Virus record (IMG/VR): IMGVR_UViG_2879742664_000006
DNA length: 33,145 nucleotides
Source: a virus
Lineage: Duplodnaviria > Heunggongvirae > Uroviricota > Caudoviricetes
Strand: one strand, 5' to 3'
The notes under the pieces: model-generated
What the model was told of the DNA's origin: nothing
The model's database searches: none
What the model saw: only the letters and a program-made list of their open reading frames with translations
Translations under genes and position numbers: made by a program
In this document: positions 7,793-33,004 of the stretch, piece by piece
Layout: every line of letters begins with the position of its first letter
Position numbering within the stretch: position 1 is the stretch's first letter

Positions 7793-7946
7793 TGCTCCCC
7801 CTGAGTAATTACAGGAAGATTACCCGCGCGCGAAACTGTTCTCCTTAACCCTCTGTTCTGGCCGTTTTCTTACAACAAAAGCCCTTTGTATCAGCCTGTT
7901 ACGCTTTGCCATCATGACTGAAGAACCAGTCAGAGGGGCAAAAACT
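7793..7946. promoter_or_regulatory. Divergent intergenic region between terminase P (-) and scaffold O (+); expected site of late promoters
   Basis: 154-bp non-coding gap between divergent operons; RBS gagggg 8 nt before the O start. No activator-binding site could be confirmed by eye. Confidence 0.3.
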
Positions 7947-8783: not shown

Positions 8784-8806
8784 TTAGACAAAGGAGCAAA
8801 TTTTTT

Positions 8807-9858: not shown

Positions 9859-9903
9859 TCAACTCACGGCGGGCATCATGCCCGCCTGTAACGGAGAGCA
9901 AAA

Positions 9904-10650: not shown

Positions 10651-10817
10651 AAAGACAACGCGGAAGCCTGCAACACGAAAAACCACCGCGACGCAGAAGG
10701 CGAAGCGCGGTTAACGACTGACCCCGTCAGCGGGCGGCGTGCGCGGTGTTCCAGTTTGACTCCGTGACCGTTTACACCGCGCACCCACCGCCCGATTTTT
10801 TTTCAGGAGTGAACCCC

Positions 10818-15689: not shown

Positions 15690-16212
15690 TTCGTTGTTAC
15701 CACCATCAGCCAGCAATTTCATGCGTTGTGCCGAAGCCGTCGGAACACGCATTACAGACATTCCGGTAGACCTCAACACGCTGTGGTCGCCGGACACCTG
15801 CCCGGTGCATCTGCTGCCTTATCTCGCCTGGGCGTTTTCCGTTGACCGCTGGGATCGCAACTGGCCGGAAGAGACAAAGCGACAGGTTATTCGTGATGCA
15901 TGGCTGATACACCGACACAAAGGGACCATCAGCGCACTGCGCCGGGCCATTGAGCCGCTGGGATACCTCATTCGCGTGTCTGAGTGGTGGGAGTTCGGCG
16001 GAGAACCGGGAACATTTACCGTTGAAGTCGGCACGCTGGACAGTGGCGTGACGGAGGAAATGTATCTGGAAATGGAGCGGTTGATTGCTGATGCCCGCCC
16101 GGTCAGCCGCCACATGACAGGGCTGAATATCATTCAGGAAATTCCGGGGGATATTTTCGCAGCGGCGGCAACTTATGACGGTGAAGTTATTACCATTTAT
16201 CCAGGCGATTAA
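15682..16212 (+). CDS. I: P2 gpI-like baseplate/tail protein
   Basis: MSNSLLPPSASNFMRCAEAVGTRITDIPVDL...; start ATG 15682 overlaps the J stop. Confidence 0.85.
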   Translation: MSNSLLPPSASNFMRCAEAVGTRITDIPVDLNTLWSPDTCPVHLLPYLAWAFSVDRWDRNWPEETKRQVIRDAWLIHRHKGTISALRRAIEPLGYLIRVSEWWEFGGEPGTFTVEVGTLDSGVTEEMYLEMERLIADARPVSRHMTGLNIIQEIPGDIFAAAATYDGEVITIYPGD

Positions 16213-16214
16213 GC

Positions 16215-18200
16215 ATGAGTACCACAACACGAAAATTTAAAACCATTATCACCGATACGGGTGCAAAAAAATTAGCTCAGGTAGCCGCGCCAGATGGTAA
16301 GCCTGTCCGCCTGACTCATATGGCCGTGGGCGACGGTGGCGGCACGTTGCCCACACCAGACAGTAAGCAGACCCGTCTGGTGCATGAGGTGTGGCGACAT
16401 ACTGTTAATCGCGTCATCCTGGACGCAACACATCAGAACCGCATTATTGCGGAGCTGGTTATTCCTCCTGAAACGGGCGGATTCTGGATCCGGGAAATTG
16501 GTGTATTTGATGAGCACGGCGATTTAATCGCGGTGGGAAATACTGCCGAAAGTTACAAGCCAGCCGTTGCCGAAGGGTCCGGTCGTGCACAAACATTTCG
16601 CACCATTCTGACCGTATCCAGCACTGCCACCGTGGCGCTTACCGTGGACAACACCATGGTGATGGCCACAGTGGATTACGTGGATGACAAACTGAAAGAG
16701 CATGAACAGTCACGACGTCACCCGGACGCCTCGCTGACCGCAAAAGGCTTTGTTCAACTCAGTAGCGCCACTAACAGCGTGTCTGAAACGCAGGCTGCAA
16801 CGCCGAAAGCAGTAAAGGCCGCGTATGATCTTGCTAACGGTAAATATACTGCGCAGGATGCCAGCACGACGCGAAAAGGCCTTGTCCAGCTCAGTAGCGC
16901 CACCAACAGCACGTCTGAAACGCAGGCTGCAACGCCGAAAGCAGTAAAGGCCGCGTATGACCTTGCTAACGCAAAATATACCGCTCAGGACGCCACGACG
17001 GCACAAAAAGGGATAGTCCAGCTCAGTAGTGCCACCAACAGCACGTCTGAAACACTGGCCGCGACATCGAAAGCGGTTAAGGCGGTAATGGATGAAACGA
17101 ACAAGAAAGCGCCCTTAAACAGTCCTGCGCTGACCGGAACGCCAACAACGCCAGCTGCGCGACAGGGAACGAATAATACCCAAATCGCAAGCACGGCTTT
17201 CGTTATGGCTGCGATTGCCGCCCTTGTAGATTCGTCACCTGACGCACTGAATACGCTGAACGAGTTAGCGGCGGCGCTGGGAAACGCCCCGAATTTTGCG
17301 ACCACCATGACTAACGCGCTTGCGGGTAAGCAACCGAAAGATGCCACCCTGACGGCGCTGGCCGGGCTTGCTACTGCGGCAGACAGGTTTCCGTATTTTA
17401 CGGGGAATGATGTCGCCAGCCTGGCAACCCTGACAAAAGTCGGGCGGGATATTCTTGCGAAATCGACCGTTGCTGCCGTTATCGAATACCTCGGTTTACG
17501 AGAACTCGGCACAAGCGGGGAGAAAATACCGTTACTCAGTACAGCGAATACCTGGACCAATCGACAAACATTCAGCGGTGGCCTTTCTGGGGAACTGTCC
17601 GGCAATGCCGCTACTGCAACAAAGCTGAAAACAGCACGAAAAATTGCTGGAGTTGGTTTTGATGGTTCTAGCGATATTTCAATTAGTGCCAAAAATGTCA
17701 ATGCATTTGCACTCCGACAAACAGGTAATACTGTTAATGGTGATACATCCGTTGGATGGAATTGGGATAGTGGTGCATATAACGCCCTGATTGGTGGTGC
17801 ATCTGCATTAATTCTTCACTTTAATATAAATGCTGGTAGCTGTCCTGCCGTACAATTCCGTGTGAATTATAAAAATGGTGGCATTTCCTACAGGTCGGCT
17901 CGTGATGGTTATGGGGTTGAATTAGGTTGGTCAGATTTCTATACCACGACACGAAAACCTTCAGCGGGAGATGTTGGTGCATATACGCGGGCAGAATGTA
18001 ACTCAAGGTTTATTACAGGTATTCGCCTTGGCGGTCTGTCATCTGTTCAGACATGGAATGGTCCCGGCTGGTCTGACAGGTCAGGTTATGTCGTTACGGG
18101 TTCAGTTAACGGAAACCGTGATGAATTAATTGATACAACACAGGCAAGGCCAATTCAGTATTGCATTAATGGGACGTGGTATAACGCGGGGAGTATTTAA
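16215..18200 (+). CDS. H: Tail fibre protein (P2 gpH-like), current fusion of constant N-terminal part with variable C-terminal segment Sv
   Basis: 661 aa; three tandem 44-aa collar repeats (KGxVQLSSATNSxSETQAATPKAVKAAYDLANxKYTAQDA); conserved crossover motif ...IEYLGLRE... at the gix-like site; followed by an assembly chaperone gene. Confidence 0.9.
   Translation: MSTTTRKFKTIITDTGAKKLAQVAAPDGKPVRLTHMAVGDGGGTLPTPDSKQTRLVHEVWRHTVNRVILDATHQNRIIAELVIPPETGGFWIREIGVFDEHGDLIAVGNTAESYKPAVAEGSGRAQTFRTILTVSSTATVALTVDNTMVMATVDYVDDKLKEHEQSRRHPDASLTAKGFVQLSSATNSVSETQAATPKAVKAAYDLANGKYTAQDASTTRKGLVQLSSATNSTSETQAATPKAVKAAYDLANAKYTAQDATTAQKGIVQLSSATNSTSETLAATSKAVKAVMDETNKKAPLNSPALTGTPTTPAARQGTNNTQIASTAFVMAAIAALVDSSPDALNTLNELAAALGNAPNFATTMTNALAGKQPKDATLTALAGLATAADRFPYFTGNDVASLATLTKVGRDILAKSTVAAVIEYLGLRELGTSGEKIPLLSTANTWTNRQTFSGGLSGELSGNAATATKLKTARKIAGVGFDGSSDISISAKNVNAFALRQTGNTVNGDTSVGWNWDSGAYNALIGGASALILHFNINAGSCPAVQFRVNYKNGGISYRSARDGYGVELGWSDFYTTTRKPSAGDVGAYTRAECNSRFITGIRLGGLSSVQTWNGPGWSDRSGYVVTGSVNGNRDELIDTTQARPIQYCINGTWYNAGSI
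16743..17100. repeat. Tandem 132-bp repeats (about 2.7 copies) inside the tail fibre gene
   Basis: Near-identical DNA units beginning aaaggc(t/c)ttgt(t/c)ca(a/g)ctcagtagcgcc at 16743 and 16875, partial third from 17007. Confidence 0.7.
17479..17504. other. Left gix/cix-like crossover site of the invertible fibre segment (inside H)
   Basis: ttatcgaatacctcggtttacgagaa is the imperfect inverted complement of the site at 20158-20183 (shared core cctcggtttac); lies at the EYLGL codons. Confidence 0.7.
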
Positions 18201-18202
18201 CG

Positions 18203-18736
18203 ATGATGCACTTAAAAAACATTACTGCTGGCAACCCTAAAACAAAAGAGCAATACCAGCTAACAAAGCAATTTAACATCAAATGGCTTTATTCAGATGA
18301 TGGGAAAAACTGGTATGAGGAACAAAAGAATTTCCAGCCAGACACTTTGAAAATGGTCTATTACCATAACGGCGTTATTATTTGTATTGAAAAGGATGTT
18401 TCAGCAATTAATCCGGAAGGCGCAAGCGTCGTTGAATTACCTGATATTACAGCAAATCGCCGGGCTGATATTTCGGGGAAATGGTTGTTCAAAGATGGCG
18501 TAGTGATAAAGCGAACTTATACCGAGGAAGAGCAGAGGCAACAAGCGGAAAATGAAAAGCAAAGCCTGTTGCAACTTGTCAGGGATAAAACCCAGCTATG
18601 GGACTCACAGCTACGGCTGGGCATCATTTCCGACGAGAATAAACAAAAATTAACCGAGTGGATGCTCTATGCGCAGAAAGTCGAATCTACAGACACCTCC
18701 AGCCTGCCAGTAACGTTTCCCGAACAACCAGAATGA
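18203..18736 (+). CDS. Tail fibre assembly chaperone (Tfa; P2 gpG / Mu U-like)
   Basis: 177-aa [40 protein letters not shown]...; directly after the fibre gene; paralogous to the minus-strand copy at 18765-19293. Confidence 0.85.
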   Translation: MMHLKNITAGNPKTKEQYQLTKQFNIKWLYSDDGKNWYEEQKNFQPDTLKMVYYHNGVIICIEKDVSAINPEGASVVELPDITANRRADISGKWLFKDGVVIKRTYTEEEQRQQAENEKQSLLQLVRDKTQLWDSQLRLGIISDENKQKLTEWMLYAQKVESTDTSSLPVTFPEQPE

Positions 18737-18739
18737 GAG

Positions 18740-18766
18740 AAGGCCCGATATTGGGCCTTAATTTTT
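18740..18766. terminator. Bidirectional terminator hairpin between the two convergent chaperone genes
   Basis: aaggccc-gatatt-gggcctt perfect hairpin followed by aattttt. Confidence 0.5.
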
Positions 18767-19293
18767 ACTCAGGCTTTTGTGGCCATTCGGGATTTGCTGT
18801 ATCCACACGGCTGACCAGAACGCTGTAGCGTTCCCATGACTCCAGTCGTGTGCGTTCCTCATCCATCGCCATATTCAGCCTGACAGCGCGTTCCAGTGGC
18901 TGAATAACGCTTTCAGCTTCAGAAAGCAACGCGACCTTTTGTGATTCGGCCTGTTGTTGCTGTTCGTCTGCTGTATAAATCCGCTTAACCACAGTTCCGT
19001 CCTTAAACATCCACTTCCCTGAATCATCGGCACGACGATTGGCTGTTATATCTGGAATCTCAACGACACTAAAGCCTTCGGGATTAAGCGTTGGGGCATC
19101 TTTGGTTATGGCAACAATAATATTATTTTCGTCGTATACAATCTTTATGGTGTCGTCCTGAAAGTTATTTACTTCCTCATACCAGTTTTTACCGTCTTCG
19201 GACCATAACCAGATAACATCAAAATTCTTTGTTAGCTGATATTGTTCTTTTGTTTTTGGATTTCCGGACTTAATATTTTTTAATATGCTGCAT
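18765..19293 (-). pseudogene. Alternate tail fibre assembly chaperone (Tfa', Mu U'-like), frameshifted at codons 5-6 as sequenced
   Basis: ATG at 19293 gives MQHIKKY* then stop; the body ([37 protein letters not shown]...) is in the +1 frame; removing one A from the A6 run (plus-strand T6 at 19276-19281) gives [17 protein letters not shown]..., colinear with Tfa. Confidence 0.7.
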
Positions 19294-19296
19294 AAT

Positions 19297-20157
19297 TTAC
19301 ACCTGTGCGACGTTATACCATGTGCCATTGATGTATTTTTGTATTGGTCTGAAGATGGCTTCATCATCGCCATCTACTTCACCAATGATTCTTAATCCGG
19401 TAATTGCGTGTCCGGCTTTTTCATAACGACCACCACGCGCCATCAATTGAACAACACGCGTACCCAGGCGAACATCTTTTACATAGCGTGAATCAAAATT
19501 CCCCCAGTTGCTGGGCTGTATCTGACCGTTAACAGAAAATATTACCGAGTTATCTGTATTTCGCTGGCTATAGAAATGCCATCCTGCCTCATTGCCTAAC
19601 TCTGCAACTACTGGACGGGTTGAAGCACCCCATAAATTAAACGTTGCATTCTTTGTGGAGTTGTTGGAGCTGGATAGCGTGAATTTTTTACCATCCCCGG
19701 CCTGAATATTTTTAAAAGCAATAGCCACTCCATTCTGAAAGCGGAATACACGCTGACTATTAGCATAAACATCCAGAATACCGTCTCCATTCTGTTTAAA
19801 TCCGGTGTCATTATCACCAAGAACAATAGAGCTACCACCTAACGCATTCGTCGAACCAACTCCAAGACTGCCATTAATGACAGCATTAACAAGAATATTT
19901 AGTGCATCCCATTTCAGCGTCATCAGGTCTTTTGTTGTGGTGCTCTGGCGGCTTCTCCATTTGAAATATTCATTGCCGTTGTCGCCTGTTTCAAACCACA
20001 TGTATGAATCAGTGTCACCATCGGCATCATTTTTAAATCCAATCTTCGCCCAGTCAGTATTTCGAATCCAGGCAAGGATTGAGTCATTTTCAAAAGTAAG
20101 CCCACCGGACAAGGTATCGCCATTTTTTTGCACGGCGTTACCAGCCCTGTTTACCGT
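19297..20157 (-). CDS. Alternate tail fibre C-terminal segment (Sv'), no start of its own; expressed only after inversion
   Basis: Minus-strand frame open from the right gix site (...[23 protein letters not shown]...) to a stop at 19297; C-terminus ...[17 protein letters not shown] parallels the current H C-terminus ...RPIQYCINGTWYNAGSI. Confidence 0.75.
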
Positions 20158-20183
20158 TTCCTGTAAACCGAGGTTTTAAATAA
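20158..20183. other. Right gix/cix-like crossover site of the invertible segment
   Basis: ttcctgtaaaccgaggttttaaataa closely resembles the Mu gix consensus as I remember it; inverted relative to 17479-17504; 54 bp upstream of the invertase gene. Confidence 0.75.
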
Positions 20184-20237
20184 TGGCCGTTTCTGGCCTG
20201 CATGGCATGATTTGCGCTTTTGGACGGGAGATTCAGT

Positions 20238-20837
20238 GTGCTGATTGGCTATGTAAGGGTATCAACAAATGACCAGAATACAGACCTGCAACGAAACGCT
20301 CTTGTTTGTGCAGGATGTGAACAAATATTTGAAGATAAATTAAGCGGGACAAAGACAGACCGACCGGGATTAAAACGCGCTTTAAAGCGCCTTCAAAAAG
20401 GTGACACGCTGGTTGTCTGGAAACTGGATCGCCTCGGGCGAAGCATGAAACATCTGATTTCTCTCGTCGGGGAACTACGGGAGCGAGGGATTAATTTTCG
20501 CAGTCTGACCGACAGCATAGACACATCTTCTCCAATGGGGCGTTTTTTCTTCCACGTGATGGGTGCCCTGGCTGAAATGGAACGTGAATTAATTGTTGAA
20601 CGTACACTGGCCGGGCTGGCGGCAGCGCGCGCAAGGGGGCGCACAGGCGGACGTCGACCGAAGCTGACAAAAGAACAGCATGAGCAAATAGCAAGGCTAA
20701 TCAAAAACGGGCACGACAGAAAACAACTGGCAATAATTTACGGCATTGGCACATCGACGATTTATCGTTATCACCCTGTAGGCGATATACAGACTGAAGA
20801 AACAACCGGGCAGACTCAGGAAAATGAAAACCGCTAA
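20238..20837 (+). CDS. Serine DNA invertase of the Pin/Gin/Cin/Hin family
   Basis: MLIGYVRVSTNDQNTDLQRNALVCAGCEQIFEDKLSGTKTDRPGLKRALKRL... (catalytic Ser in VRVSTNDQ), C-terminal HTH; GTG start inferred at 20238 inside track ORF 20220..20837. Confidence 0.9.
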   Translation: MLIGYVRVSTNDQNTDLQRNALVCAGCEQIFEDKLSGTKTDRPGLKRALKRLQKGDTLVVWKLDRLGRSMKHLISLVGELRERGINFRSLTDSIDTSSPMGRFFFHVMGALAEMERELIVERTLAGLAAARARGRTGGRRPKLTKEQHEQIARLIKNGHDRKQLAIIYGIGTSTIYRYHPVGDIQTEETTGQTQENENR

Positions 20838-20858
20838 TCTGACCATTAGCGGTTTTTG
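20827..20858. terminator. Rho-independent terminator hairpin shared by invertase (+) and gpU (-)
   Basis: aaaaccgctaat-ctgacc-attagcggttttt; includes the invertase stop codon. Confidence 0.55.
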
Positions 20859-20865
20859 TGTTAAA

Positions 20866-21360
20866 TCAGAACAGCCCTTTAACTGAACTGGCCGCGCTGT
20901 TAAGAGATGATGTCACCTTATCTTTGAAGCCGGACAGCATATCACTGAACGATGAGGATTGCAGGCGCTCCCGCAAATCCTCATCACAGCGTTCAAGAGT
21001 CAGTGAAAATTCTATCTTTTTCGCCTTACCGTAGCGATCAAACTCGGAGCGGGTCGTATTCGTTTCAGTCAGGACATACATGCCGTAAATCTGCCCGACG
21101 CCATCAATCAAAGGCCAGGGTCGTCCTGTATACGCCTGCGTAGTCAGCAGCGACAGCGACACTTCGCCACCTGTAATTTCAGGATAAAGCACACCAGAAA
21201 GAACGATGCGATCATCACCTGCACCGATATACTGCCAGCTTGCTGAACGGTTAACGCGTTCATTTTTCACATGCCGCCAGCTTTTGTTTTGCTGTAACTG
21301 CTGATGCGGCAGCGTGCGCAGCTCAAAAACAAACATGCCGTAGATCATCATCATGGCCAT
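20866..21360 (-). CDS. U: P2 gpU-like tail protein
   Basis: 164-aa MAMMMIYGMFVFELRTLPHQQLQQNKSWRH...; immediately downstream of the tape measure gene on the minus strand. Confidence 0.85.
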   Translation of the reverse strand: MAMMMIYGMFVFELRTLPHQQLQQNKSWRHVKNERVNRSASWQYIGAGDDRIVLSGVLYPEITGGEVSLSLLTTQAYTGRPWPLIDGVGQIYGMYVLTETNTTRSEFDRYGKAKKIEFSLTLERCDEDLRERLQSSSFSDMLSGFKDKVTSSLNSAASSVKGLF

Positions 21361-21366
21361 GACTCC

Positions 21367-24174
21367 TCAATCTTTATCGTAAAAACAGCCACGCCCGGCA
21401 CGGGCGCGCCGTTCCATTTCTGCCCTGACCATTTCACCGACCAGTTTCGCCAGTTCGCGGGGATTCTGCGTAACAACGTTATGCAGATGAACATGAATTT
21501 CACCACCAAATCCGAAGGCAACAGGCTCCCGGTTACGGGAAGTTACAGGAACTGATGCCACTGGAGATCGTATAGCCTCCGCCACCGGGCGGGAGCTGGC
21601 CGCAACAACAGGGACCAGCGCCGGAGGCAGCGGAGCCGGAACCACGGGTGTGATATTAATTGCGGGGGCAGGCTTACTGACCTGCGCAATCTTCCGCTCC
21701 TGCCACTCCCCACGAACAGCAAGTGCTCGGGGCAGGTTTTTAAAGACAATATCGCCGGGGCCAATGCGTTTTTTCGTCTCCTCAACCAGCTTACCTGTGT
21801 TATCAGCAATTTTGCTGAGTCTGCGCAGCGTACCGGTATTGCTGTCTGTGAGCGGTTTATTGTCTTTGGGGTTATCACCTCCGGTGCCATTGCCATTTTC
21901 CACAGGCTTCGGCGGATTGATTTTCGCCAGATCCCCCTGAAGCAAGGCAACCTTGTCCTGAAGAATGGCCGCACGCTGTGCGTCTTCGATTTTCTTGCGC
22001 GCCCTTTCCGCTTCATCCGGAAGCACACCAAGCTTTTCAAGTATCCACGCCAGCGTATCCAGCAACATTTTTGCAGGTGTCAGAACAAGTTGTAACGCAC
22101 CGCCAAGAACGTTACCGAATATCTCGCCAGCACTGGTACATTTATCCAGAGTTTCCTTGCTGGACTCCATCGGTGACAGCAGCGATTTAAACCAGTTAAA
22201 CACCTGGCTGATCCCACTCCCGATTGCGTCAAAAACAGGACCAAACCGTTCAAAGGTTTCGCGCAACGGGGTCAGCCTTTCCATAATCCCGCTGAACACC
22301 CCGGCAAAAAATGCCCTGATGGGATCCCAGTATTTCCAGATAAGAACGGCAGCTCCGGCAAGCGCAGCCACGATAAGACCAACCGGACTGAACAACGCCC
22401 CGATAGCGCCTCCCAGTAAAGAAACGGAACCCGTCACCATTCCCCATAGTGCTGGCAGAACCCTGACAGCATTCATTGATCCGGTCAGGAGGGAAAAACC
22501 AAGACGCAGTTTTGCCAGCGGGCCAGCAAGCACACCAATAGCCAGCGACAACGAGCCAACCGTTGCAGTCATTGCCAGCAATGCACCGCCTGCAATCAGT
22601 AGCTGGCGCGTCAGTGCGGGATGGGCCTGCGCCAGCGCCGTCACCTTTGATACCACACGCGTGAGCCACTGCGTGACAGAACGCAGCGGACCGTCAATCA
22701 GATCTGCAATGCGGATGCGCAACCCTTCCCATGCACTGCTGAGTGATTTCAGATCGCCGTCAAGGTTGTTGGCCATAACCTTTGCCGTGCGTTCAGCCTC
22801 ACCGCGCGCGCCTTCAAGTTCTTTTCTCAGTTTGGGTAAGGAGCCGTCACCTGCCGCATCAACGAGGGCCATAAATGATGTGAAAGCCTCTTCTCCGGCA
22901 ATGTCCTTAAAGAACGATACCCGGTCAACTTCCCCGTATTTGCGGGTAGCTTTATAAAGGTCAGCCAGCACATCCTCCATCGGGCGCATTTTGCCCCCGG
23001 CATCCGAGACAGACACGCCAAGCTCTTTCAGCGCCTCTGCTGCCGCCTTTGGCGGTGATGCCAGACGAGCCAGGCTGGCACGCATTGCCGTACCAGCATC
23101 ACTCCCCCTGATACCCATATTCGCCAGCACGCCCGCCATCGCTGCGGCCTGCTCCAGAGATATTCCCAGCTTACCCGCCACCGGACCTGCATATTTCATG
23201 GTTTCACCCAGTGCGCGAAGGTCAGTGTTGGTACGGGTAAACGCTGCGGTGAGTGTGTCGCCGACCCGGTCCATCTGGTCAGCAGAAAGACCGAACTGCG
23301 TCAGAATATTTGAGCCAATATCCGCCGTCTCACCGAGGTCCATACCGCCAGCCGTTGCCATGCTCAGTACGCCAGGGAGCGCAGCCTGAATGGCCTGTGG
23401 TGTAAAGCCAGCCATTGCAAGAAATGCCTGTCCACTGGCGGCATCGCCTGCGGTGAACTGCGTTTCAGAGCCAAGTTTTAACGCCTGCTCACGCAGCGCC
23501 TTAAACTGCGGGCTGTTCTGGTCGATTCGCGTCAGTGCCTGAACGCGGGACATCTCTTTGCCGAACCCGATCGCAGGCTGCAAAAAACGCCCGGCAGCAT
23601 AGCCGCCCGCCGCTGCCGCACCAATTGCCAGCGCACCACCTGTTTTCAGTTTTCCCGCTGTTTCCTGCGCGCGCGAATACCGCTCACGCGCCCGTGTTAC
23701 ACGCGCAAGCGCCTGCCGTTCGCGTTCAAGCTGGTTGTTGTACTGTTCGGTGCGTCTGATGGCCTGCTGGATGGTGTTATCGCTGCCTGTCAGGGAAATG
23801 CCGTGGCGTTTCAGCTCTCCGCCAAGCTCCCGCATTTTCTGAATTTCCCGTGTGCGCGATTCATTCAGGCGTTCAAGCCGGGTGCTTAACTGCTGCATCA
23901 GCTTTTGTTGTTTTTCGCTGAGCACTGTACCCGTGCGTTGTAACTGATTAAGGGCGTTAAGCTGGCGTCGTGCTTTCACGATGCCAGCATCCGCTTTACT
24001 GACAGCGTCACGGGCGCGCTCAAATGATCGCGCCTGACGCTCGAGATTTTTGATCGCCCCCTGCGTTCGCTGGATGGAGTCACCAAACTGCCCCATCAGG
24101 CGGCGGGCGTTTTCGGCAGGCCGGGTCAGCCTGTCAACGGCGCTGAAAGCGACCCGGATATCAAGAGTCTTCAT
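21367..24174 (-). CDS. T: Tail tape measure protein (P2 gpT-like)
   Basis: ~935-aa ORF, coiled-coil N-terminal third, Gly/Ala-rich hydrophobic middle; start placed at the Met of MKTLDIRV (RBS ggga); track ORF extends to 24210. Confidence 0.9.
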   Translation of the reverse strand: MKTLDIRVAFSAVDRLTRPAENARRLMGQFGDSIQRTQGAIKNLERQARSFERARDAVSKADAGIVKARRQLNALNQLQRTGTVLSEKQQKLMQQLSTRLERLNESRTREIQKMRELGGELKRHGISLTGSDNTIQQAIRRTEQYNNQLERERQALARVTRARERYSRAQETAGKLKTGGALAIGAAAAGGYAAGRFLQPAIGFGKEMSRVQALTRIDQNSPQFKALREQALKLGSETQFTAGDAASGQAFLAMAGFTPQAIQAALPGVLSMATAGGMDLGETADIGSNILTQFGLSADQMDRVGDTLTAAFTRTNTDLRALGETMKYAGPVAGKLGISLEQAAAMAGVLANMGIRGSDAGTAMRASLARLASPPKAAAEALKELGVSVSDAGGKMRPMEDVLADLYKATRKYGEVDRVSFFKDIAGEEAFTSFMALVDAAGDGSLPKLRKELEGARGEAERTAKVMANNLDGDLKSLSSAWEGLRIRIADLIDGPLRSVTQWLTRVVSKVTALAQAHPALTRQLLIAGGALLAMTATVGSLSLAIGVLAGPLAKLRLGFSLLTGSMNAVRVLPALWGMVTGSVSLLGGAIGALFSPVGLIVAALAGAAVLIWKYWDPIRAFFAGVFSGIMERLTPLRETFERFGPVFDAIGSGISQVFNWFKSLLSPMESSKETLDKCTSAGEIFGNVLGGALQLVLTPAKMLLDTLAWILEKLGVLPDEAERARKKIEDAQRAAILQDKVALLQGDLAKINPPKPVENGNGTGGDNPKDNKPLTDSNTGTLRRLSKIADNTGKLVEETKKRIGPGDIVFKNLPRALAVRGEWQERKIAQVSKPAPAINITPVVPAPLPPALVPVVAASSRPVAEAIRSPVASVPVTSRNREPVAFGFGGEIHVHLHNVVTQNPRELAKLVGEMVRAEMERRARAGRGCFYDKD

Positions 24175-24211
24175 TGTCTGCATTCCCGCTACGAAGTGCC
24201 GCCCGCTCACG

Positions 24212-24699
24212 TCAGCTAACCACTTCGCCGGGCGTCATCATGAAGATTTCGGCGGGCGACCAGTTAAAAATGGCGGCAATATCCGCCACCAGATCTTCGA
24301 TGTGCTCAAAGCACACCAGGGTGATTACGCTGCCGTCTCCTGCACGCTCTTCGCGCCAGAGTCTGGCTCGCTCATAAAATTTACAGCCACAGCGCACAAC
24401 TGAATAAAATCGCGTGACGACATTTTTTTAATCATCACTTCATCCAGTCGTGGCGAGGTCACGCGAGGCAACAGCGTGAACATGGTATCCGCTTTCAGAT
24501 TCAGCACATCAGACAGCGACAGACCACGCAGGGATCCAGCCTGCTCAATAGCCCCGGTGATCTCCACATACGTGATTTTTTCGCCACCACGCTCAATTGG
24601 TCGGGTCAGTTTTACGCCACGTTCGACAGCCATATCCTCAACTGCCGTCACATTATCCGCCACGGTGTTATTCCGGGTTTCAGTATCGATGTCTTTCAT
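24212..24699 (-). CDS. gpE+E'-like frameshift product (programmed -1 frameshift, putative)
   Basis: A -1 frame (...KFYERARLWREERAGDGSVITL...PGEVVS*) is open from a slippery-like heptamer A_AAT_TTT (plus-strand 24375-24381) in E through to a stop at 24212, 2 nt before the T start, the conserved chaperone arrangement. Confidence 0.55.
24325..24699 (-). CDS. E: Tail assembly chaperone gpE-like
   Basis: 124-aa ORF with strong RBS aaggaga 7 nt before ATG 24699; lies between tail tube and tape measure genes. Confidence 0.75.
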   Translation of the reverse strand: MKDIDTETRNNTVADNVTAVEDMAVERGVKLTRPIERGGEKITYVEITGAIEQAGSLRGLSLSDVLNLKADTMFTLLPRVTSPRLDEVMIKKMSSRDFIQLCAVAVNFMSEPDSGAKSVQETAA

Positions 24700-24754
24700 C
24701 TGTTGTCTCCTTTTCAGTCAGAGGCGACGCACTGCGCCGCCAGCATATTACTTA

Positions 24755-25265
24755 TCAGCCAAGCCCAAGCGCGGAACGGATGCGATCGGGCACAATGTCC
24801 TTGCCGTCCTTCCGGTAAATGAAGTTCAGCAGGTCAATCTCCCACAACGGGCGATCGTTAACACTCAGCTTGTAGTAGGTGTTTTAATGGCGTAAGTGTG
24901 TGATGTGGCTTCGCCCTGTTTGGCTTCCCCCATATCAATTTCCGTCACACGTCCGCGCATTTCGACTTCATACAGGTCGCTTTCTGCATCGGTGTAGTAT
25001 TCACCCGCAAAACGCAGCAGCGTGCCGTCAATCGTGCCGCCATACTTAAGGAACAGCTCACGAACTGCGCCCCCATGACAAAGCTCGCATCAAGCGCGGA
25101 GTCGTCCAGACCGAGATCAATACTTACCGCACCCATCATGCCACCACCCCGGTAGCTGTCGGTTTTGCGCGTCAGCTTAGGCAGAGTGACGGACGTCACA
25201 TTACCCACTTCGTTTTCACCATCCACAAACAGCGTAAAAAAGCGAAGATGTTTTGGCACAGCCAT
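24755..25265 (-). pseudogene. FII: P2 gpFII-like tail tube protein with two 1-bp frameshifts as sequenced
   Basis: N-terminal part in track ORF 24945..25265 (MAVPKHLRFFTLFVDGENEVGNVTSVTLPKLTRKTDSYRGGG...); tube-like sequence continues in two other frames (...GGAVRELFLKYGGTIDGTLLRFAGEYY..., then ...YYKLSVNDRPLWEIDLLNFIYRKDGKDIVPDRIRSALGLG*). Frame changes at a C5 run (25070-25074) and a T4 run (24883-24886). Confidence 0.8.
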
Positions 25266-26449
25266 CAGGCACCTCCCAGCACCGCAAATGCGGGTTCAAA
25301 GTATTCATCAGTAAACGTCTGGTAAAGCTCCATGTCTTCCAGTGGCGGAACGGGCGTATATTTGTAGCGAATACGCACACGTCCCTGACGTAAATCCGTG
25401 GTGCTGTTATCCACCACGTCATACCAGCACTCCGCGCCAATCAGTTTCCCGGCAGTCACCAGTGAATCCAGTTTTGCCCTGATGGCACTGATAACATCCT
25501 TCACATTCGCAGGCGTCAGTGGACTGTCGATGGTTTCAAACTGCGCTTCCGCAATTGAATCAGCCAGCACCTGTGCGGTTCGGGTATACACCTCAAAGAT
25601 GTAGGCGTTCGTTTCCGGTGTGCGGTTACCCCAGAAGCGGAACCCGTTGCGACGAATAATGGTCGTGATTTCTTTGTTGTTGAGGCTGTTGGCATCGCTG
25701 TCTTCGGCCTGCAACGACCAGAACACATGCCTCGACATCCCCAGCACATTTTTAACCGGAACGTTGGACAGCGATTTGTGCCATCCCTGTTCATGGTCAA
25801 TGTACGCACGAAGGCCGCACGCATAGGCAGGCGCGGGGAACGTTTCGTTTTTGCCATTTTTCGGGTTGTAGGCGATGAAGTCCGGCCATAAGAGCATCAC
25901 CTCACGTTCGTTGAATTTCTGGCGGTAGGTAATTGCCTCGGCCATCGTGTTACAGCCATGACATGAGGCATACACAAACGCGCGCAGTTTATCTGCAATC
26001 ACGCACAGGGATTTTGTTACCGCCTCCGTGTCCAGCTCCGGCGCGGCCAGAATACGCGGACGGTATCCGATGCTTTCATCCTGCTCTGCAACAAGCAGCG
26101 CATACATCCCCGTATAGCTGCCGTCATCCTCAGAACCACCGATAACCAGTTGATCCTGCGTCTTTCCGTCTTCTTCTTTGTGTTCAGCCACGCGAACGAC
26201 GATCACCTTTGTGCTCACCTGGTCTGCGATGGCCTTAAGCGCACGATAAAGCGTCCCCGTTGTCCCGCATTTTCCCAGCACGTCATTGACGCGGGTCAGC
26301 AGTGTGGGCTTGTTCAGCGGGAACAGCTTCGCGTCCGCATCATCCGCCGTTGCCACGATACCGATAACGCTGGAATCAACATCGTTAATCGCTGTTACCA
26401 GGTCGGTATTCTCCGTAACACGGGCACCATGAAAACGAGTTTCACTCAT
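25265..26449 (-). CDS. FI: P2 gpFI-like tail sheath protein
   Basis: 394-aa intact ORF; stop overlaps the tail tube start. Confidence 0.9.
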   Translation of the reverse strand: MSETRFHGARVTENTDLVTAINDVDSSVIGIVATADDADAKLFPLNKPTLLTRVNDVLGKCGTTGTLYRALKAIADQVSTKVIVVRVAEHKEEDGKTQDQLVIGGSEDDGSYTGMYALLVAEQDESIGYRPRILAAPELDTEAVTKSLCVIADKLRAFVYASCHGCNTMAEAITYRQKFNEREVMLLWPDFIAYNPKNGKNETFPAPAYACGLRAYIDHEQGWHKSLSNVPVKNVLGMSRHVFWSLQAEDSDANSLNNKEITTIIRRNGFRFWGNRTPETNAYIFEVYTRTAQVLADSIAEAQFETIDSPLTPANVKDVISAIRAKLDSLVTAGKLIGAECWYDVVDNSTTDLRQGRVRIRYKYTPVPPLEDMELYQTFTDEYFEPAFAVLGGA

Positions 26450-26606
26450 AGCTTCAGCCCCTTGTATCCGTTAAATGATTCAGCAACAATCATCACCCAC
26501 CACGCGCGTAATCTCACCCCTGCGCCGTTCTCCCGCCACGGCGACAACAAAAAGCAGTAACCCCCTCCGCACGCACATGCGACCATGCCGCACAGGGAGG
26601 GAGCAG

Positions 26607-27716
26607 ATGACCGACACCACCATGCAATTGCTCAGTCAGGGCACGGCCCCCGTGAAAATGCCGGATTTTGATATTCTCTCGGAGGGTAAAACGCTGTCAG
26701 GCGTGGCGGAGCGCCTGATGAGCCTGTAACTGACCGACAACCGGGGATTTGAGGCGGACCAGCTCACCATCACGCTGGATGATGCGGATGGTCAGTTGCA
26801 GCTACCGCCACGGGGCGCGCGTCTGACGGTTCTCATTGGCTGGAAAGGGGAACCGCTGACAGAAAAAGGCACTTACATTGTTGATGAAATCGCTCACGAA
26901 GGACCGCCGGACAGGCTGACTGTTTCAGCCAGAAGCGCAGATTTTCGGGATGAATTTAACGTTAAACGTGAGGTGTCCTGGCATGATGTGACCGTTGAGC
27001 GTGTGGTATCCGCCATCACTCATCGGTACGGTCTGAAACCGCAAATCAGCGAAATGCTGATGGATATCGAAATCGACCACGCCGACCAGACCGAAGAAAG
27101 CGACATGTCCTTTCTTACGCGCATGGCGGAAATGCTGGGAGCAATCGCCACGGTAAAAAGCGGCAATCTGTTATTCATCATGCCAGGTGGTGGCGTGAAC
27201 GCACAGGGGCAGCCGTTGCCCTCGTTCGCCATTACACGCAGCAGCGGCGATCGCCATCAGTTCCGCATTGCTGACCGCGAGGCGTATACGGGGGTACGCG
27301 CCTACTGGCTTGATCTTAATTACGGGAAAAAGAAAAAAGTCAGCGTGAAACGCCGCAAACCGCCAAAACCCAAAAAGGAGAAAAGCAGCAGTCGGGAAGG
27401 CGACTATATGGAAGGTGCGGAAGGCAACGTGTTTGTGTTACGCAAGACTTATCAGAACGAGCAGGCAGCAAGACGCGCAGCGGCGGCAAAGTGGCAGCAG
27501 CTACAACGCGGAGCCGCATCATTCTCCATCACGCTGGCGCGTGGTCGTGCAGAACTCTATCCCGAAATGCATGGCACAGTGACAGGCTTTAAAAGCGAGA
27601 TTGATTATCAGGACTGGACTATTGCAAAAGCCGAGCACACCATTGATAACAGCGGCTTTACCACGCAGCTTGAACTTGAAGCAAAAATCCCGGAATGGAT
27701 AGCAGAAACAGAATAA
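26607..27716 (+). pseudogene. D: P2 gpD-like tail protein with an in-frame TAA stop at codon 41 (26727-26729)
   Basis: ATG 26607 with RBS agggaggg; track ORFs 26475..26729 and 26796..27716 are in the same frame, separated only by TAA; D-like sequence reads continuously across it (...GVAERLMSL*LTDNRGFEADQLTITLDDADGQLQLPPRGARLTVLIGWKGEPL...). Confidence 0.8.
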
Positions 27717-27964
27717 ATCTCTTAAAAATATTATTTTTGAGATGTGCTTCTACACTGACAGTAAGAACAAAAGATAATGTATCAGCCCACTAGATGTCAG
27801 AGGTTGGGGCATCAACCAGATGCTAACAATAATACGGATGTTTTTCCCACATGACAGAGGAAGTCAAGTATAATCTTCACAGTCCATCCCGTCCAAGGGA
27901 ATATGACTCAATAGTAAAAGTTCCAGTTTAGTTAGTAGACCCACACTTTATAGAAGAGTAATTC

Positions 27965-30900
27965 ATGATTGGACAATTTTTAAGTGCAACAGAGATTTTA
28001 GCAAAGAACTATGTTCGTAATAAAATGGTTAAAAATCCATTTTATTCGAATTTAAAATGGAATTTTATTGAAAAAAACATCATAAGATTAACATCCTCAC
28101 CGGTTAAATCAGTACTTTGCATATCAGCTTTTTCATTTGTACTACTTTATGTTGGATATTTAAACGAATTATTTATAAAAAATAATCTTTTACATTATTT
28201 CCCGTTTAGGCATTCATTAACCGAATGGCAAACAACCATTTTAAGTGGCCAATTGACAATTATTGGTATTGTATACCCCCTTGTTATAGGTTTAGTAAGT
28301 GTCTTATTCCAAAAAAAGGCAGATAGAAAAATAGCCCAAACTGCTTATCAGCGTTACTCAGGATTCATGCTTGCTGGACTCAGCGGGCTTTTCTTATCAG
28401 GATTTATACTTCTCAGTGTACTAATTAAAACTGTCTTTGGAAGTTATCTTTATGGTATAGCTTGTCTAATCAGCATATTATGGCTTTTGATAAACATAGT
28501 TCTTTCTATTTGGTTCTTTATCGTGAGTCTTGAAATTCTTGATGATGTAAAACGGCAAATAATTATAAAGCGATACATTGCCTTCGAAATAGTAATGCCC
28601 CATATTTGTAACAAAATATCAGCCAAGCTTAGGTTATACCCTATCTATCAAAAACATAACTATTCAAATTTAGAAATCACGCAAGCCGATTACAAAGGAG
28701 AATACATATCTGTGGCTAGCAGTTATTCTAAGGAAGATGAGTTAAGTTTATATCACCGTCCTTTTCAACTTACTCTTAATCTTATTAATTACCAACTAAA
28801 AAAGAAGAATCATTTTGCGTCATTTGTCATTGGTGATAATCGTACAAAAGAAACAGAATCCACGGGTAAGATACTTTTTAGCGTTAAAAATATCAAACCA
28901 GACAGCTTATTAATAAAAATACTTAAGCAATGTTTTTATAGGGCTCCGATTAAAGGAGGAGATTTTTCCGTAAGTCTTACAATGCAGGCTATAACAGCAG
29001 ATACGTATATGTATCTGCGGGATTCTGATCTCATTAGTTTTGACAATGCTATCTCTGCATTAATTAATAACTTTAATAATCTCTGCGATTTGTATTTTTT
29101 TCAAGATGATAATACCAACAATAACTTCTTACTGATCACTACAGAATTATTTGAACGGAGTTTTCAATATGAGTTTTCAGATGAAGTTTATAAAATATCA
29201 AATAATTCCATGGATAAAATTAATCTTTCTGAAAGATTTTTTGAATTATGTCTTTGGAGCGGAGTGCGTATTATCAATAATAGAAAACATCTTATCAGCA
29301 ATGAACTTTGTATCTATATGGGAATTACTCGTTCACAATGGTCAATATTAACAGAATGGTTCCGAAACAACCAATCACTCTTAAATGCCTCGCTTCGTTC
29401 ACGTTATAATCGTATATTAAGAACCTATATCACTGTTTGGGAGCAATATCAAGAAAGCATAAACTTTCGTTTCTGCAATACAGAGAATTCAGATTTATTT
29501 GAATTATTTTGCAAAACGCAACTACAAGAACTTCCATCGATGATTATTGATGCAACACAGACTCGCGATCCTTCTACTATTGATACAGCCGTCGATCTTA
29601 TTAACCGATGGCAGCACTCAATGAATATTGACAGCCATTCGGTAGAAAAATACAGTTACAAAGGCCAGCTTTTTAACCCGGGTTTTTTCATATCCAAAAA
29701 ACTAAACTTCAATTCAGACAGAGAGTGGTTCAATATTGCCATCATAAATGCGTTGACTGACATGCGTATATGCACATGTCTTTATCTGACATCAAGAATC
29801 AATACTTCTGACAAACTAATGACACATTACATTAAACTTATTTTAGAGGGTAAACTTATTGACCAAACCGGTGGATATGAAACTCCCACTGAAGAAATTG
29901 ATAATGCAAGCCAACTAATCAAGATATTAATTAGAATCTGCCTGTGGACATGGTCTGAAAATATGGAGCACAATGGGTGGATGAATAGTTTAGCAAGGCG
30001 TTTACGTGACTATGATAAAACAGACATGGTGATGGGCAGAGTTTACAGTAATGTTTTTGACTGTGGATTTATTGATATGGAACAATCATGGGTTCAGCTA
30101 TTATTAATTTTTTCTAACAAGAACGATAGCGTATCAAAAGAAATAAAAGAAGCAATAGAAAACAACTATATAACATATCGTGAGAAGCAACGACTCATTG
30201 GAGTATTATCAAAAATTTGTAACTCCATCGAATACACTAAAATCAAGCTGACTTTAACATTGGACGATCTCCAAACAAAAAAAGAAAACTTAAGAAAGTT
30301 GCTTCAAGAGCATATTAACATGCTAAAGAAAGATCTTGATATGAGACTTCAGGATGCTGCCATAGATGTACATCGACTAGATAGCACTGCACGTAAAACA
30401 TCAGAACATCTTCGTAAACGCATCAAGAAAACGCTCCCTCTTTCACTTTTCAAATCTATTGATTTTAAGCAGGCTAGCGATTGTTTCACAAAACATAAGA
30501 TATCTATTAAGATAGATAAAGAACCGTATGCCGAAGGAATAGAATCCATCCCTTATATCAATGAAGGTGATATTCAAGCAGACTTAATTCTCAAGGACAT
30601 CCAGAGAATAATACTTTCAAATTTATTTAGCACTGGCTGTTCGCAACATACCGTAATAGAAGATTTCAATATGTTGATTGATCACATAAAATCATCTGCT
30701 GACTTGGCTGGCAAACTGGTTCTTGTGATGAGTAAAGAGATCTTTCAGCAATATAATCGTATGCTTTTCGATAATCCCAACCTCAGAGAACTAATGAGAA
30801 AAAATGATGATGGCTCTATGAACATAACTACTGAATCCGGTACCCGTAAGGTTTACTTCTTACCATTTGTTAATCAACCATTTTCTCTTGTGGTAAAGGA

Positions 30901-31084
30901 TAACTACTTCACTAAATTAATTATTAGAGAATATGATAATAATAAGTTAGTAAATGTCACTTCAGAGAATATCAAAAGTGACTCAGATAAATTCAAGCTA
31001 ACTCTTAACTATGAGTTGAATATAGTATTTGAAGGAAACGCTGATTTAAAAATAGCTCACTCGCAAAGAGTGACATCAGAATAA
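27965..31084 (+). CDS. Large membrane-anchored protein of unknown function (1039 aa), AT-rich cargo gene
   Basis: Single uninterrupted ORF, visibly AT-rich (about 17 G+C in the first 60 nt) against GC-rich phage genes; N-terminal hydrophobic helices (residues ~50-190), then ~850 aa with no recognisable motif; possible -10 box TATAAT at 27869-27874. Confidence 0.8.
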   Translation: MIGQFLSATEILAKNYVRNKMVKNPFYSNLKWNFIEKNIIRLTSSPVKSVLCISAFSFVLLYVGYLNELFIKNNLLHYFPFRHSLTEWQTTILSGQLTIIGIVYPLVIGLVSVLFQKKADRKIAQTAYQRYSGFMLAGLSGLFLSGFILLSVLIKTVFGSYLYGIACLISILWLLINIVLSIWFFIVSLEILDDVKRQIIIKRYIAFEIVMPHICNKISAKLRLYPIYQKHNYSNLEITQADYKGEYISVASSYSKEDELSLYHRPFQLTLNLINYQLKKKNHFASFVIGDNRTKETESTGKILFSVKNIKPDSLLIKILKQCFYRAPIKGGDFSVSLTMQAITADTYMYLRDSDLISFDNAISALINNFNNLCDLYFFQDDNTNNNFLLITTELFERSFQYEFSDEVYKISNNSMDKINLSERFFELCLWSGVRIINNRKHLISNELCIYMGITRSQWSILTEWFRNNQSLLNASLRSRYNRILRTYITVWEQYQESINFRFCNTENSDLFELFCKTQLQELPSMIIDATQTRDPSTIDTAVDLINRWQHSMNIDSHSVEKYSYKGQLFNPGFFISKKLNFNSDREWFNIAIINALTDMRICTCLYLTSRINTSDKLMTHYIKLILEGKLIDQTGGYETPTEEIDNASQLIKILIRICLWTWSENMEHNGWMNSLARRLRDYDKTDMVMGRVYSNVFDCGFIDMEQSWVQLLLIFSNKNDSVSKEIKEAIENNYITYREKQRLIGVLSKICNSIEYTKIKLTLTLDDLQTKKENLRKLLQEHINMLKKDLDMRLQDAAIDVHRLDSTARKTSEHLRKRIKKTLPLSLFKSIDFKQASDCFTKHKISIKIDKEPYAEGIESIPYINEGDIQADLILKDIQRIILSNLFSTGCSQHTVIEDFNMLIDHIKSSADLAGKLVLVMSKEIFQQYNRMLFDNPNLRELMRKNDDGSMNITTESGTRKVYFLPFVNQPFSLVVKDNYFTKLIIREYDNNKLVNVTSENIKSDSDKFKLTLNYELNIVFEGNADLKIAHSQRVTSE

Positions 31085-31219: not shown

Positions 31220-31415
31220 ATGTTCCGTTGTCCGCTTTGTGGCGCATCTGCCCGTATCCGCACCAGTCGTCCGGAAAATGATTCAAACACCGTGAGACAA
31301 AAGTATTATCAGTGTAACAATCTAGAATGCGGCGTATGTTTCTCAACACTGGAAGCCTTCCACAAATTCACTTCAAAGCACGCCTCCCCCATTCACTCAT
31401 CAGAGGGCATCCCGT
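31220..31415 (+). pseudogene. ogr: ogr-like zinc-finger late-gene activator, 3' end split off by IS2 (remaining codons at 32746-32823)
   Basis: MFRCPLCGASARIRTSRPENDSNTVRQKYYQCNNLECGVCF... (CxxC...CxxxxC); the IS2 terminal repeat begins at 31416 inside the frame, which resumes after the IS2 left end as ...PWHELPTSHRGNNQMSLPLPQN*. Confidence 0.8.
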
Positions 31416-31426
31416 TGGATTTGCCC

Positions 31427-32331
31427 CTATATTTCCAGACATCTGTTATCACTTAACCCATTACAAGCCCGCTGCCGCAGATATTCCCGTGGCGAGCGAT
31501 AACCCAGCGCACTATGCGGATGCCATTCGTTATAATGCTCGAACGCCTCTGCAAGGTTCTTTGCTGCCGTTAACCCGTCTGGTTTGGGCATGATACTGAT
31601 GTAGTCACGCTTTATCGTTTTCACGAAGCTCTCTGCTATTCCGTTACTCTCCGGACTCCGCACCGCCGTGTTCTTCGGTTCAAGTCCCAACATCCGGGCG
31701 AACTGGCGTGTTTCATTAGCCCGGTAGCATGAACCATTATCCGTCAGCCACTCCACTGGAGACGACGGAAGATCGTTGCCGAAGCGGCGTTCCACCGCTC
31801 CCAGCATGACGTCCTGTACTGTTTCACTGTTGAAGCCGCCGGTAGTCACCGCCCAGTGCAGTGCCTCACGATCACAGCAGTCCAGCGCGAACGTGACACG
31901 CAGTCTCTCTCCGTTATCACAGCAGAACTCGAACCCGTCAGAGCACCATCGCTGATTGCTTTCTTTCACGGCCACTCTGCCTGTATGTGCCCGTTTCGAT
32001 GGCGGTACAGCAGGTTTTCGTCAAGCAACAGCGCATTCTGGCGCATGATCCGGTAAACACGTTTGGCATTGATCGCAGGCATACCATCAAGTTCTGCCTG
32101 TCTGCGAAGCAGCGCCCATACCCGACGATAACCATACGTGGGCAGCTCTCCGATAACATGGTGTATACGGAGAAGCACATCCGTATCATCAGTGTGACGA
32201 CTGCGGCGGCCATCCATCCAGTCATCGGTTCGTCTGAGAATGACGTGCAACTGCGCACGCGACACCCGGAGACAACGGCTGACTAAGCTTACTCCCCATC
32301 CCCGGGCAATAAGGGCGCGTGCGCTATCCAC
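31427..32331 (-). pseudogene. insD: IS2 transposase OrfB (InsD) with an internal 1-bp frameshift near 32019-32025
   Basis: Split into track ORFs 31966..32331 ([12 protein letters not shown]...[28 protein letters not shown]) and 31427..31975 ([17 protein letters not shown]...); the shifted frame reads [24 protein letters not shown], so one base is missing around cttga(a)cgaaaacc. Confidence 0.8.
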
Positions 32332-32654
32332 TTTTTTGCCCGTCCATATTCAACGGCTTCTTTGAGGAGTTCATTTTCCATCGTTTTCTTGCCGAGCAGG
32401 CGCTGGAGTTCTTTAATCTGCTTCATGGCGGCAGCAAGTTCAGAGGCAGGAACAACCTGTTCTCCGGCGGCCACAGCAGTAAGACTTCCTTCCTGGTATT
32501 GCTTACGCCAGAGAAATAACTGGCTGGCTGCTACACCATGTTGCCGGGCAACGAGGGAGACCGTCATCCCCGGTTCAAAGCTCTGCTGAACAATTGCGAT
32601 CTTTTCCTGTGTGGTACGCCGTCTGCGTTTCTCCGGCCCTAAGACATCAATCAT
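32289..32654 (-). CDS. insC: IS2 transposase OrfA (InsC)
   Basis: [56 protein letters not shown]...; track ORF starts 15 codons upstream at 32699. Confidence 0.85.
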
Positions 32655-33004
32655 CTGTACTCCAATGACTAGTCTAAAAACTAGTATTAAGACTATCACT
32701 TATTTAAGTGATACTGGTTGTCTGGAGATTCAGGGGGCCAGTCTACCGTGGCATGAACTGCCAACTTCACACAGAGGAAACAATCAGATGAGTTTGCCCT
32801 TACCTCAGAATTAACGAGCAGAATTGCCGGAGTAACAAAAAAGCGATAGATTACGCGCGGGTGCCTTTCGGCTGATGGTCGGAGGGAATACCTGAAGGCC
32901 AGATGTGGAAAGGCCCCGGAAAACATTTTTGTTTAACCGAGGCCCTAACCGTCTACCCTAAGCAAGTGATAGGTTAGCGCCTCCCCGAAAAAGGAGCAAG
33001 CGCT

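Follow-up and report, generated by a model that had tools for sequence, protein, structure and literature searches.

The window, that is the whole 33,145-nt stretch of viral DNA that was analysed, carries a P2-like (Peduoviridae) tail module whose genes and strands were assigned from the map of open reading frames together with Pfam and PHROG scans. The minus strand carries genes U, T, E/E', FII and FI (20866-26449), and the plus strand carries D (26607-27716), which is divergent from FI. This is the arrangement given in the preliminary description, and the Pfam and PHROG matches bear out both the identities of the genes and their strands. By the same matches the module is complete as a set, comprising the GpU protein, the tape measure protein, the E/E' pair, the FII tube, the FI sheath and the GPD hub; FII, E' and D are disrupted in this copy. 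The block of minus-strand genes is bounded by a 28-bp spacer at its U end (20838-20865) and by a 157-bp spacer between FI and D (26450-26606). On the minus strand at 24376-24382, the heptamer A_AAU_UUU is a possible slip site for the E and E' frames. The coordinates of the features are collected in Table 1.

Table 1. Features of the tail block and of the regions related to it. Positions are those of the window; L003 is the intact relative with which the genes were compared.
Feature	Position	Strand	Basis
Serine DNA invertase (Gin/Cin/Pin type), neighbour of the block and not part of it	20238..20837	+	Pfam Resolvase and HTH_7; 75% identical to Fels-2 invertase
Hairpin bordered by A and T runs, probably a bidirectional intrinsic terminator that serves both the invertase gene (+) and the FI-U operon (-)	20827..20856		Terminator scan, 12-pair stem
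gpU tail protein, last gene of the leftward FI-U operon	20866..21354	-	Pfam Phage_P2_GpU, E 5e-39; 100% identical to L003 protein
gpT tape measure protein	21367..24174	-	Pfam PhageMin_Tail; 99.6% identical to L003
E' extension frame, -1 relative to E	24161..24316	-	Translation compared with L003; PGAP name in L003 'GpE family phage tail protein'
gpE tail assembly chaperone	24325..24699	-	Pfam Phage_TAC_7, weak, under curated cut-off; PHROG 103 'tail protein', E 8e-37; 35% identical to P2 E
gpFII tail tube gene, pseudogene here	24753..25265	-	Pfam Phage_tube at 24945-25265; match over first 66 residues of the gene product
gpFI tail sheath, first gene of the leftward operon	25265..26449	-	Pfam sheath domains; 100% identical to L003
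Divergent FI-D spacer, proposed bidirectional late promoter region	26450..26606		Sequence and comparative analysis
-10-like hexamer GATGAT, proposed leftward P_F, predicted start ~26482	26489..26494	-	Fixed offset from dyad; start from P2 geometry
Predicted P2-type late activator dyad GTTCT-N12-ACAAC	26527..26548		9/10 match to GTTGT-N12-ACAAC
-10-like hexamer GACCAT, proposed rightward P_D, predicted start ~26593	26581..26586	+	Same offset on the D side, also in clade members; inferred
gpD baseplate hub gene, pseudogene here	26607..27716	+	Pfam Phage_GPD (26796-27716); PHROG 52
Same dyad GTTCT-N12-ACAAC in the divergent P/O (terminase/scaffold) spacer	7855..7876		Identical half-sites
ogr/delta-type late activator gene, split by a ~1.33 kb IS (31416-32745)	31220..32811	+	L003 alignment; Pfam Ogr_Delta on 5' part, HTH_Tnp_1 on IS ORF; tblastn, two pieces

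In P2, Fels-2 and phiCTX, FI, FII, E, T, U and D follow one another on one strand, in the same direction as the fibre genes, and the block in the window is therefore inverted relative to all three, as had been claimed for P2. The canonical single rightward F operon (FI...U-D) is absent, FI-U being on the strand opposite to D, and this trait divides the P88-type clade from the P2/Fels-2-type clade. With the F operon of P2, Fels-2 and phiCTX the window shares the gene set, the order within FI-U, the layout of the E/E' frameshift, an Ogr/Delta-type activator and a dyad of the TGT-N12-ACA type upstream of FI. It differs from that operon in that FI-U is inverted as a block, the overlap of U with D is lost, and D has an upstream region of its own; the proteins of the two share only 33-54% identity.

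The same order is met in P88/Xuanwuvirus-type genomes, with fibre genes on the plus strand, U-T-E-FII-FI on the minus strand and D on the plus strand. The annotations of P88 and of the Citrobacter phage phiSM give the same strands as in the window block. Eight phages (P88, P884B11, phiSM, 503458, 520873, 500465-2, PhiR44_2 and Chuche) match the block and D as one collinear place at 93-98% identity, and P88, P884B11, phiSM and phage 503458 are 95.6-97.6% identical at the nucleotide level over 63-89% of window positions 16000-28500. Both P88 and phiSM are viable phages, plaque-forming or inducible (PMC5285337; PMC6456863), so that the inverted layout is functional. In E. coli GDSC2BY4G an intact prophage, 99.6% identical and adjoining ihfA/pheT, has the same order. 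When a collinear match over at least 80% of the query was demanded, the stretch from the invertase through U...FI to D was found as one match in 1101 of 5426 complete E. coli genomes, UTI89 included, or about a fifth. For comparison we built the junction that the P2 orientation would produce, composed of the invertase end, the spacer and the 5' end of FI in forward orientation. None of the 5426 genomes spans this hypothetical junction, while 1657 match one half of it.

These counts bear on the three origins that the preliminary description had left side by side, an ancestral inversion, a natural variant or a misassembly. The order common to 1101 E. coli genomes, to eight phages and to 29 loci of other genera (drawn from the best 80 of 425 matches in the survey below) speaks for a natural variant descended from an old inversion and excludes misassembly. 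A recent inversion or an assembly fault private to this genome would have the contrast with P2 itself as its sole support; the exact order recurs in all the genomes just named, the alternative junction is missing from the 5426 genomes, and no inverted repeats pair the two block junctions. We regard the chance of such a private event as negligible. It had been stated beforehand that many independent P2-like prophages with exactly this arrangement would mark it as typical of a lineage, and this is precisely what the genomes hold.

Within Peduoviridae the closest group is P88 and other Xuanwuvirus members (P884B11, phiSM and the E. coli prophages by ihfA/pheT), in which the order of invertase, opposite-strand U-T-E-FII-FI and D is identical to that of the window. 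The window copy differs from them in its defects, which affect FII, E', D and ogr as well as the portal, capsid and small terminase genes. What is more, it carries between D and ogr a low-GC gene of 1039 amino acids that P88 and phiSM lack at that place; searches of Pfam, PADLOC, NCBIfam, PHROGs and PDB sequences gave no match for this cargo reading frame.

To place the order more widely, one genome per bacterial species was scanned with an alignment of D proteins, and the best 80 of 425 matches, all of them in Enterobacterales, were taken. Local tblastn searches with the tail proteins of the P88 type, of P2 and of Fels-2 served to classify the loci; contig ends cut 12 of the 80. Among these best 80 matches, U...FI lies on the strand opposite to D in every one of the 29 loci with a D protein that shares 61-99% identity with the P88-type D, while all 39 classifiable loci whose D is at most 54% identical have the canonical order of the P2/Fels-2 type. 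Hosts of the inverted loci within this sample are Salmonella, Kluyvera, Kosakonia, Enterobacter, Klebsiella, Xenorhabdus, Providencia, Rouxiella, Photorhabdus, Dryocola, Hafnia, Citrobacter, Morganella, Yersinia and Pectobacterium; besides these 15 Enterobacterales genera, one inverted-order contig among the 80 bears the label Vagococcus. Across the same 80 loci, D, FI and U are nearest to the P88-type query wherever the order is inverted and nearest to P2 or Fels-2 wherever it is canonical.

Neighbour-joining trees of D and of FI, rooted on phiCTX, place the two gene orders in separate clades. The P88-type proteins are evenly 33-61% identical to those of P2 and Fels-2 across head, baseplate, FI-U and D. 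This evenness argues against a recent import of the block and fits an old lineage rather than a mosaic. Since P2, Fels-2 and the distant phiCTX are all canonical, the simplest reading is a single old inversion that defines the clade; the canonical order would then be ancestral, a direction of change judged from few outgroups. HP1 was rejected as an outgroup for being too rearranged. Fels-2 was also considered as a sharer of the inversion and rejected, its order being canonical with the invertase before FI.

At the U end, the block converges on the invertase gene. The preliminary description saw an ordinary convergent terminator at this junction, and the hairpin found there agrees with it: the stem of 12-15 bp has a fold energy of -17.1 kcal/mol on the plus strand and -15.7 kcal/mol on the minus strand, with z values of -4.2 and -3.6. 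The position of the invertase gene, which abuts the U end, raises the alternative that this Gin/Cin/Pin-type enzyme flips the FI-U block, now or formerly, as a second invertible segment. Serine invertases occasionally use secondary sites, which lends the alternative some general plausibility. The sites in the window point elsewhere. A search of the whole window for gix-like patterns with up to 3 mismatches returned two sites, TTCTCGTAAACCGAGGTATT at 17485-17504 (minus) and TTCCTGTAAACCGAGGTTTT at 20158-20177 (plus), both flanking the H/G fibre segment, and none at the ends of the FI-U block. An inverted-repeat search over 15500-28200 likewise returned this gix-like pair and chance-level pairs, with none pairing 20838-20865 with 26450-26606.

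The distribution of the gene leads to the same answer. In the sample of the best 80 matches, an invertase gene accompanies only 4 of the 29 loci of inverted order, and two near-identical Xuanwuvirus copies (L006 and L007) are without one. On the other hand, Fels-2 and other loci of canonical order have the invertase at the same position. Orientation of the FI-U block is not polymorphic: the alternative junction occurs in none of the 5426 E. coli genomes and the 29 clade loci all show one orientation. Flipping by the invertase is accordingly very improbable, if slightly less so than a private rearrangement. The neighbouring invertase is not responsible for the inverted order, and both parts of the earlier statement, that the breakpoints have no gix-like site and that the inversion cannot be attributed to the Pin-type enzyme, agree with the site search and with the 4/29 count. 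As an accessory of the fibre module the invertase is optional, and it has been inserted at the meeting point of two convergent operons. The likeness to the classical Gin/Cin/Pin/Hin segments (Mu G, P1 C, e14 P) consists in the direct neighbours of the block, an invertase of that family and a fibre segment that is truly invertible and has gix-like sites; the FI-U block differs from such segments in having neither flanking recombination sites nor orientation polymorphism and, in most loci, no invertase. The inverted order is neither a switch nor a recent event nor an assembly error.

At the other end, the spacer between FI and D contains a predicted late activator dyad of the P2 type, whose centre (26537.5) lies at a distance of 88.5 nt from the ATG of FI and 69.5 nt from that of D. 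An exact search of the window for TGT-N12-ACA gave 9 matches, which is the chance level, and none of them was in the FI-D or P/O spacers. The dyad in the window is one base off this pattern (TCT) and is seen only when one mismatch is allowed and the pattern is extended to GTTGT-N12-ACAAC. Matches of at least 9/10 to the extended pattern number 5 in the window against 0.9 expected, and 2 of the 5 lie in the two divergent late spacers. Among the clade loci from the best 80 of 425 matches, 25 of the 29 FI-D spacers contain TGT-N12-ACA in its exact form, which has a background frequency of 0.16 per kb, and the other 4 of this sample have TCT-N12-ACA or an alternative perfect dyad, GTTCTC...GAGAAC. 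None of the 29 clade loci from these best 80 matches lacks an equivalent dyad between FI and D; the loci are related, so that such counts overstate their independence, but the flanking spacer sequence has nonetheless diverged heavily.

When the spacers of clade members are aligned on the dyad, a NANNAT hexamer appears on both flanks at bases 33-38 after the 22-mer. On the FI side the relatives show AATCAT, GAATAT or AATGAT, and on the D side AATTAT, AACTAT, AATCAT, GACGAT, AATGAT or GAGTAT; the P/O spacer of the window has TAATCT and CATCAT at the same offset from its dyad. A scan for sigma-70-like promoters found none in the FI-D spacer. The predicted P_D start would fall just ahead of the Shine-Dalgarno sequence GGGAGGGAG and would leave a leader of just ~14 nt. 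We also observed a conserved CGCGCG-rich box between the dyad and the D-side hexamer.

The preliminary description had reasoned that D needs a promoter of its own. This was right, and the FI-D spacer holds a conserved candidate for it. The closest precedent is the pair P_P/P_O of P2, for which the GenBank record places one 'activator binding site; pO, pP promoters' at 3057-3087; the two starts, at 3016 and 3127, flank this central site at a distance of ~55 nt. The likeness lies in one central dyad within a spacer of ~150-175 bp between divergent late genes and in starts ~55 nt either side, those of FI-D being predicted. While the P2 starts and binding site are annotated in the record, their FI-D counterparts are sequence predictions. 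The activator itself would be supplied by the Ogr/Delta zinc-finger gene that the window encodes (Pfam Ogr_Delta at 31220-31456), split by an IS here and intact in L003.

A different assignment of the dyad would leave the order typical of the lineage but have the dyad serve FI only, D being read from a separate promoter that is either independent of the activator or dependent on a second, unrecognised site. Two points in favour of this assignment are the weakness of the D-side hexamer in the window (GACCAT) and the great shortness of the predicted leader; a third is the presence of the CGCGCG-rich box on the D side between dyad and hexamer. Against it, the plus strand of the spacer has no sigma-70-like site, the offset of the D-side hexamer from the dyad is kept in all clade members and mirrors both the FI side and the P/O spacer of the window, and P2 offers the precedent of one site for two divergent late promoters. 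We consider a separate D promoter unlikely, if more credible than either of the alternatives for the gene order.

The reading that we prefer, with a probability of roughly 85%, is that the window is a P88-like (Xuanwuvirus, Peduoviridae) prophage with an order fixed in its clade after one old inversion, and that the dyad would drive two divergent late promoters. The FI-FII-E/E'-T-U block would have been inverted once, long ago, in the P88/Xuanwuvirus branch of the P2-like phages, and the order would have been fixed since, with V, W, J, I, H and G rightward, then U, T, E, FII and FI leftward, then D (ogr) rightward. The promoter of the F operon would have been carried along by the inversion, and hence an Ogr-type activator dyad would have come to occupy the centre of the FI-D spacer, which measures ~160-200 bp. 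This single dyad may drive two divergent late promoters ~110 bp apart, P_F leftward and P_D rightward, as in P2 for P and O. The leftward operon would end at the hairpin, shared with the converging invertase or fibre genes.

As the activator site is symmetric and P_F lies inside the inverted segment, the inversion would place the site beside D automatically, which may be why late control survived the splitting of the operon. That the inversion in this way moved the F-operon site next to D and gave rise to a second bidirectional late promoter dependent on Ogr, maintained throughout the existence of the Enterobacterales-wide clade, seems to us somewhat favoured; the promoter reasoning as a whole, from sequence and conservation, we hold to be fairly probable. 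If true, it would provide a natural example of a dyad-symmetric class I activator site that permits an operon to be split by inversion with its regulation kept, and the FI-D spacer would be a compact, testable second case of a bidirectional Ogr-type promoter.

The prophage in the window is a further, decayed member of a well-sampled genus, and both this genus and a wider enterobacterial clade typically show its gene order. In the literature on P88, Xuanwuvirus, P2-like/Peduoviridae synteny and xenorhabdicin we found no paper on the inverted order or on a promoter shared by FI and D. The arrangement is plain in public annotations and is therefore already known. Its value as a discovery is small, since this layout is standard in a common phage genus and can already be seen in annotated reference genomes, and the sole mildly new point is the putative bidirectional late promoter. 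For annotators and for synteny-based classifiers of prophages, an inverted U...FI with a divergent D is a marker of the P88-type clade and not an error.

The copy in the window can be scored as defective. Compared with L003, FII is frameshifted by two 1-bp deletions, at ~24882 and ~25070, and in E' a Trp codon has become a stop; in D, codon 41 is an in-frame TAA (26727-26729). All three genes are intact in the 99.6% identical prophage of E. coli GDSC2BY4G. Relative to L003, the portal gene has a 10-bp deletion and a 6-bp insertion, the capsid gene has indels and a stop, the small terminase gene has a 10-bp insertion, and G' has a 1-bp insertion. Sequencing error could account for the 1-bp indels, which lie in homopolymer runs at 8801, 8982, 10796, 19284, 24882 and 25070, but not for the nonsense changes, the 10-bp indels or the IS; the prophage is therefore defective, and the proposed promoter is without its activator in this genome. 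With ogr, D, FII, E' and several head genes broken, the late system of this copy is dead. The earlier reading from the sequence alone had overlooked that FII, E' and D are pseudogenes here.

In both the FI-D spacer and the divergent terminase/scaffold (P/O) spacer, the putative activator dyad GTTCT-N12-ACAAC is accompanied by a CGCGCG-rich box that lies between the dyad and a -10-like hexamer, at a roughly fixed distance. The D side of the dyad carries such a box in all members of the clade with the inverted U to FI block and divergent D, and the P side of the P/O spacer in the window is similarly equipped.

Location of the features discussed in the text
Feature	Position	Strand	Remarks
CGCGCG-rich box	26503-26508, 26569-26582, 7822-7829		Also in FI-D spacers of the related loci L008-L034
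Invertible tail-fibre segment, H C-terminus/G vs G'/H'	17485-20177		gix-like site at each end (two)
A_AAU_UUU heptamer	24376-24382	-	E reading frame, ~50 nt ahead of E stop
1039-aa ORF	27965-31084	+	Between D and ogr
ogr/delta-type late activator gene	31220-32811		Interrupted at 31415 by insertion sequence
Insertion sequence, ~1.33 kb	31416-32745		Inside ogr
HTH_Tnp_1 ORF of insertion sequence	32289-32699	-	Pfam

Within the tail block, the A_AAU_UUU heptamer is placed so that a -1 slip there would lead into the E' frame; judged from the sequence, it is likely to be where the programmed frameshifting of the E/E' pair occurs. The invertible fibre segment shares 89-94% identity with the Mu G, P1 C, P7, D108 and D6 segments.

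The place of the 1039-aa ORF downstream of D is occupied in most relatives by ogr, which there lies immediately 3' of D. The ORF has a GC content of 31-36%, and no match to it was found in Pfam, PADLOC, NCBIfam, PHROGs or PDB sequences. A 99.6% identical copy is named 'MFS transporter' by PGAP, a label that looks doubtful; the gene may represent uncharacterised cargo, of either the moron or the defence type. As for ogr itself, the size and layout of the element that interrupts it suggest an IS2/IS3-family insertion sequence, the second ORF of which is broken in two (31427-31975 and 31966-32331).

Further inactivating lesions, in 5000-10720 and at 19284, were scored against L003, the intact, closely related prophage of E. 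coli GDSC2BY4G. The portal gene has gained 6 bp at 5730 and lost 10 bp near 5928. The capsid gene contains a stop as well as 1-bp indels at 8801 and 8982, an extra 10 bp is present in the small terminase gene at 10625, and G' has acquired 1 bp at 19284. The single-base changes, in the capsid gene and G', all fall within homopolymer runs and could be artefacts of sequencing. On the early/replication side, window 1-4520 differs from L003: only 2945-3892 can be aligned, with 96.6% identity and at a shifted position, which indicates that the early region is mosaic. The aligned stretch spans ParM-like and ParR-like genes, indicating that partition genes of plasmid type reside within this P2-like prophage.

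The 226-kb contig NZ_JBQPOM010000071.1 (locus L007), labelled Vagococcus sp., contains a Xuanwuvirus tail region whose proteins are 95-99% identical to the E. coli type, probably as a result of contamination or mislabelling of the assembly. The tail of Citrobacter phage phiSM, which has the same tail-gene order as the window, has been described as long, noncontractile and Siphoviridae-like (PMC6456863); its genome (OR565851) encodes a P2-type sheath and tube. In the deposited annotation of OR565851, the name 'late control gene D' has wrongly been given to the sheath gene, and 'ogr' to D.
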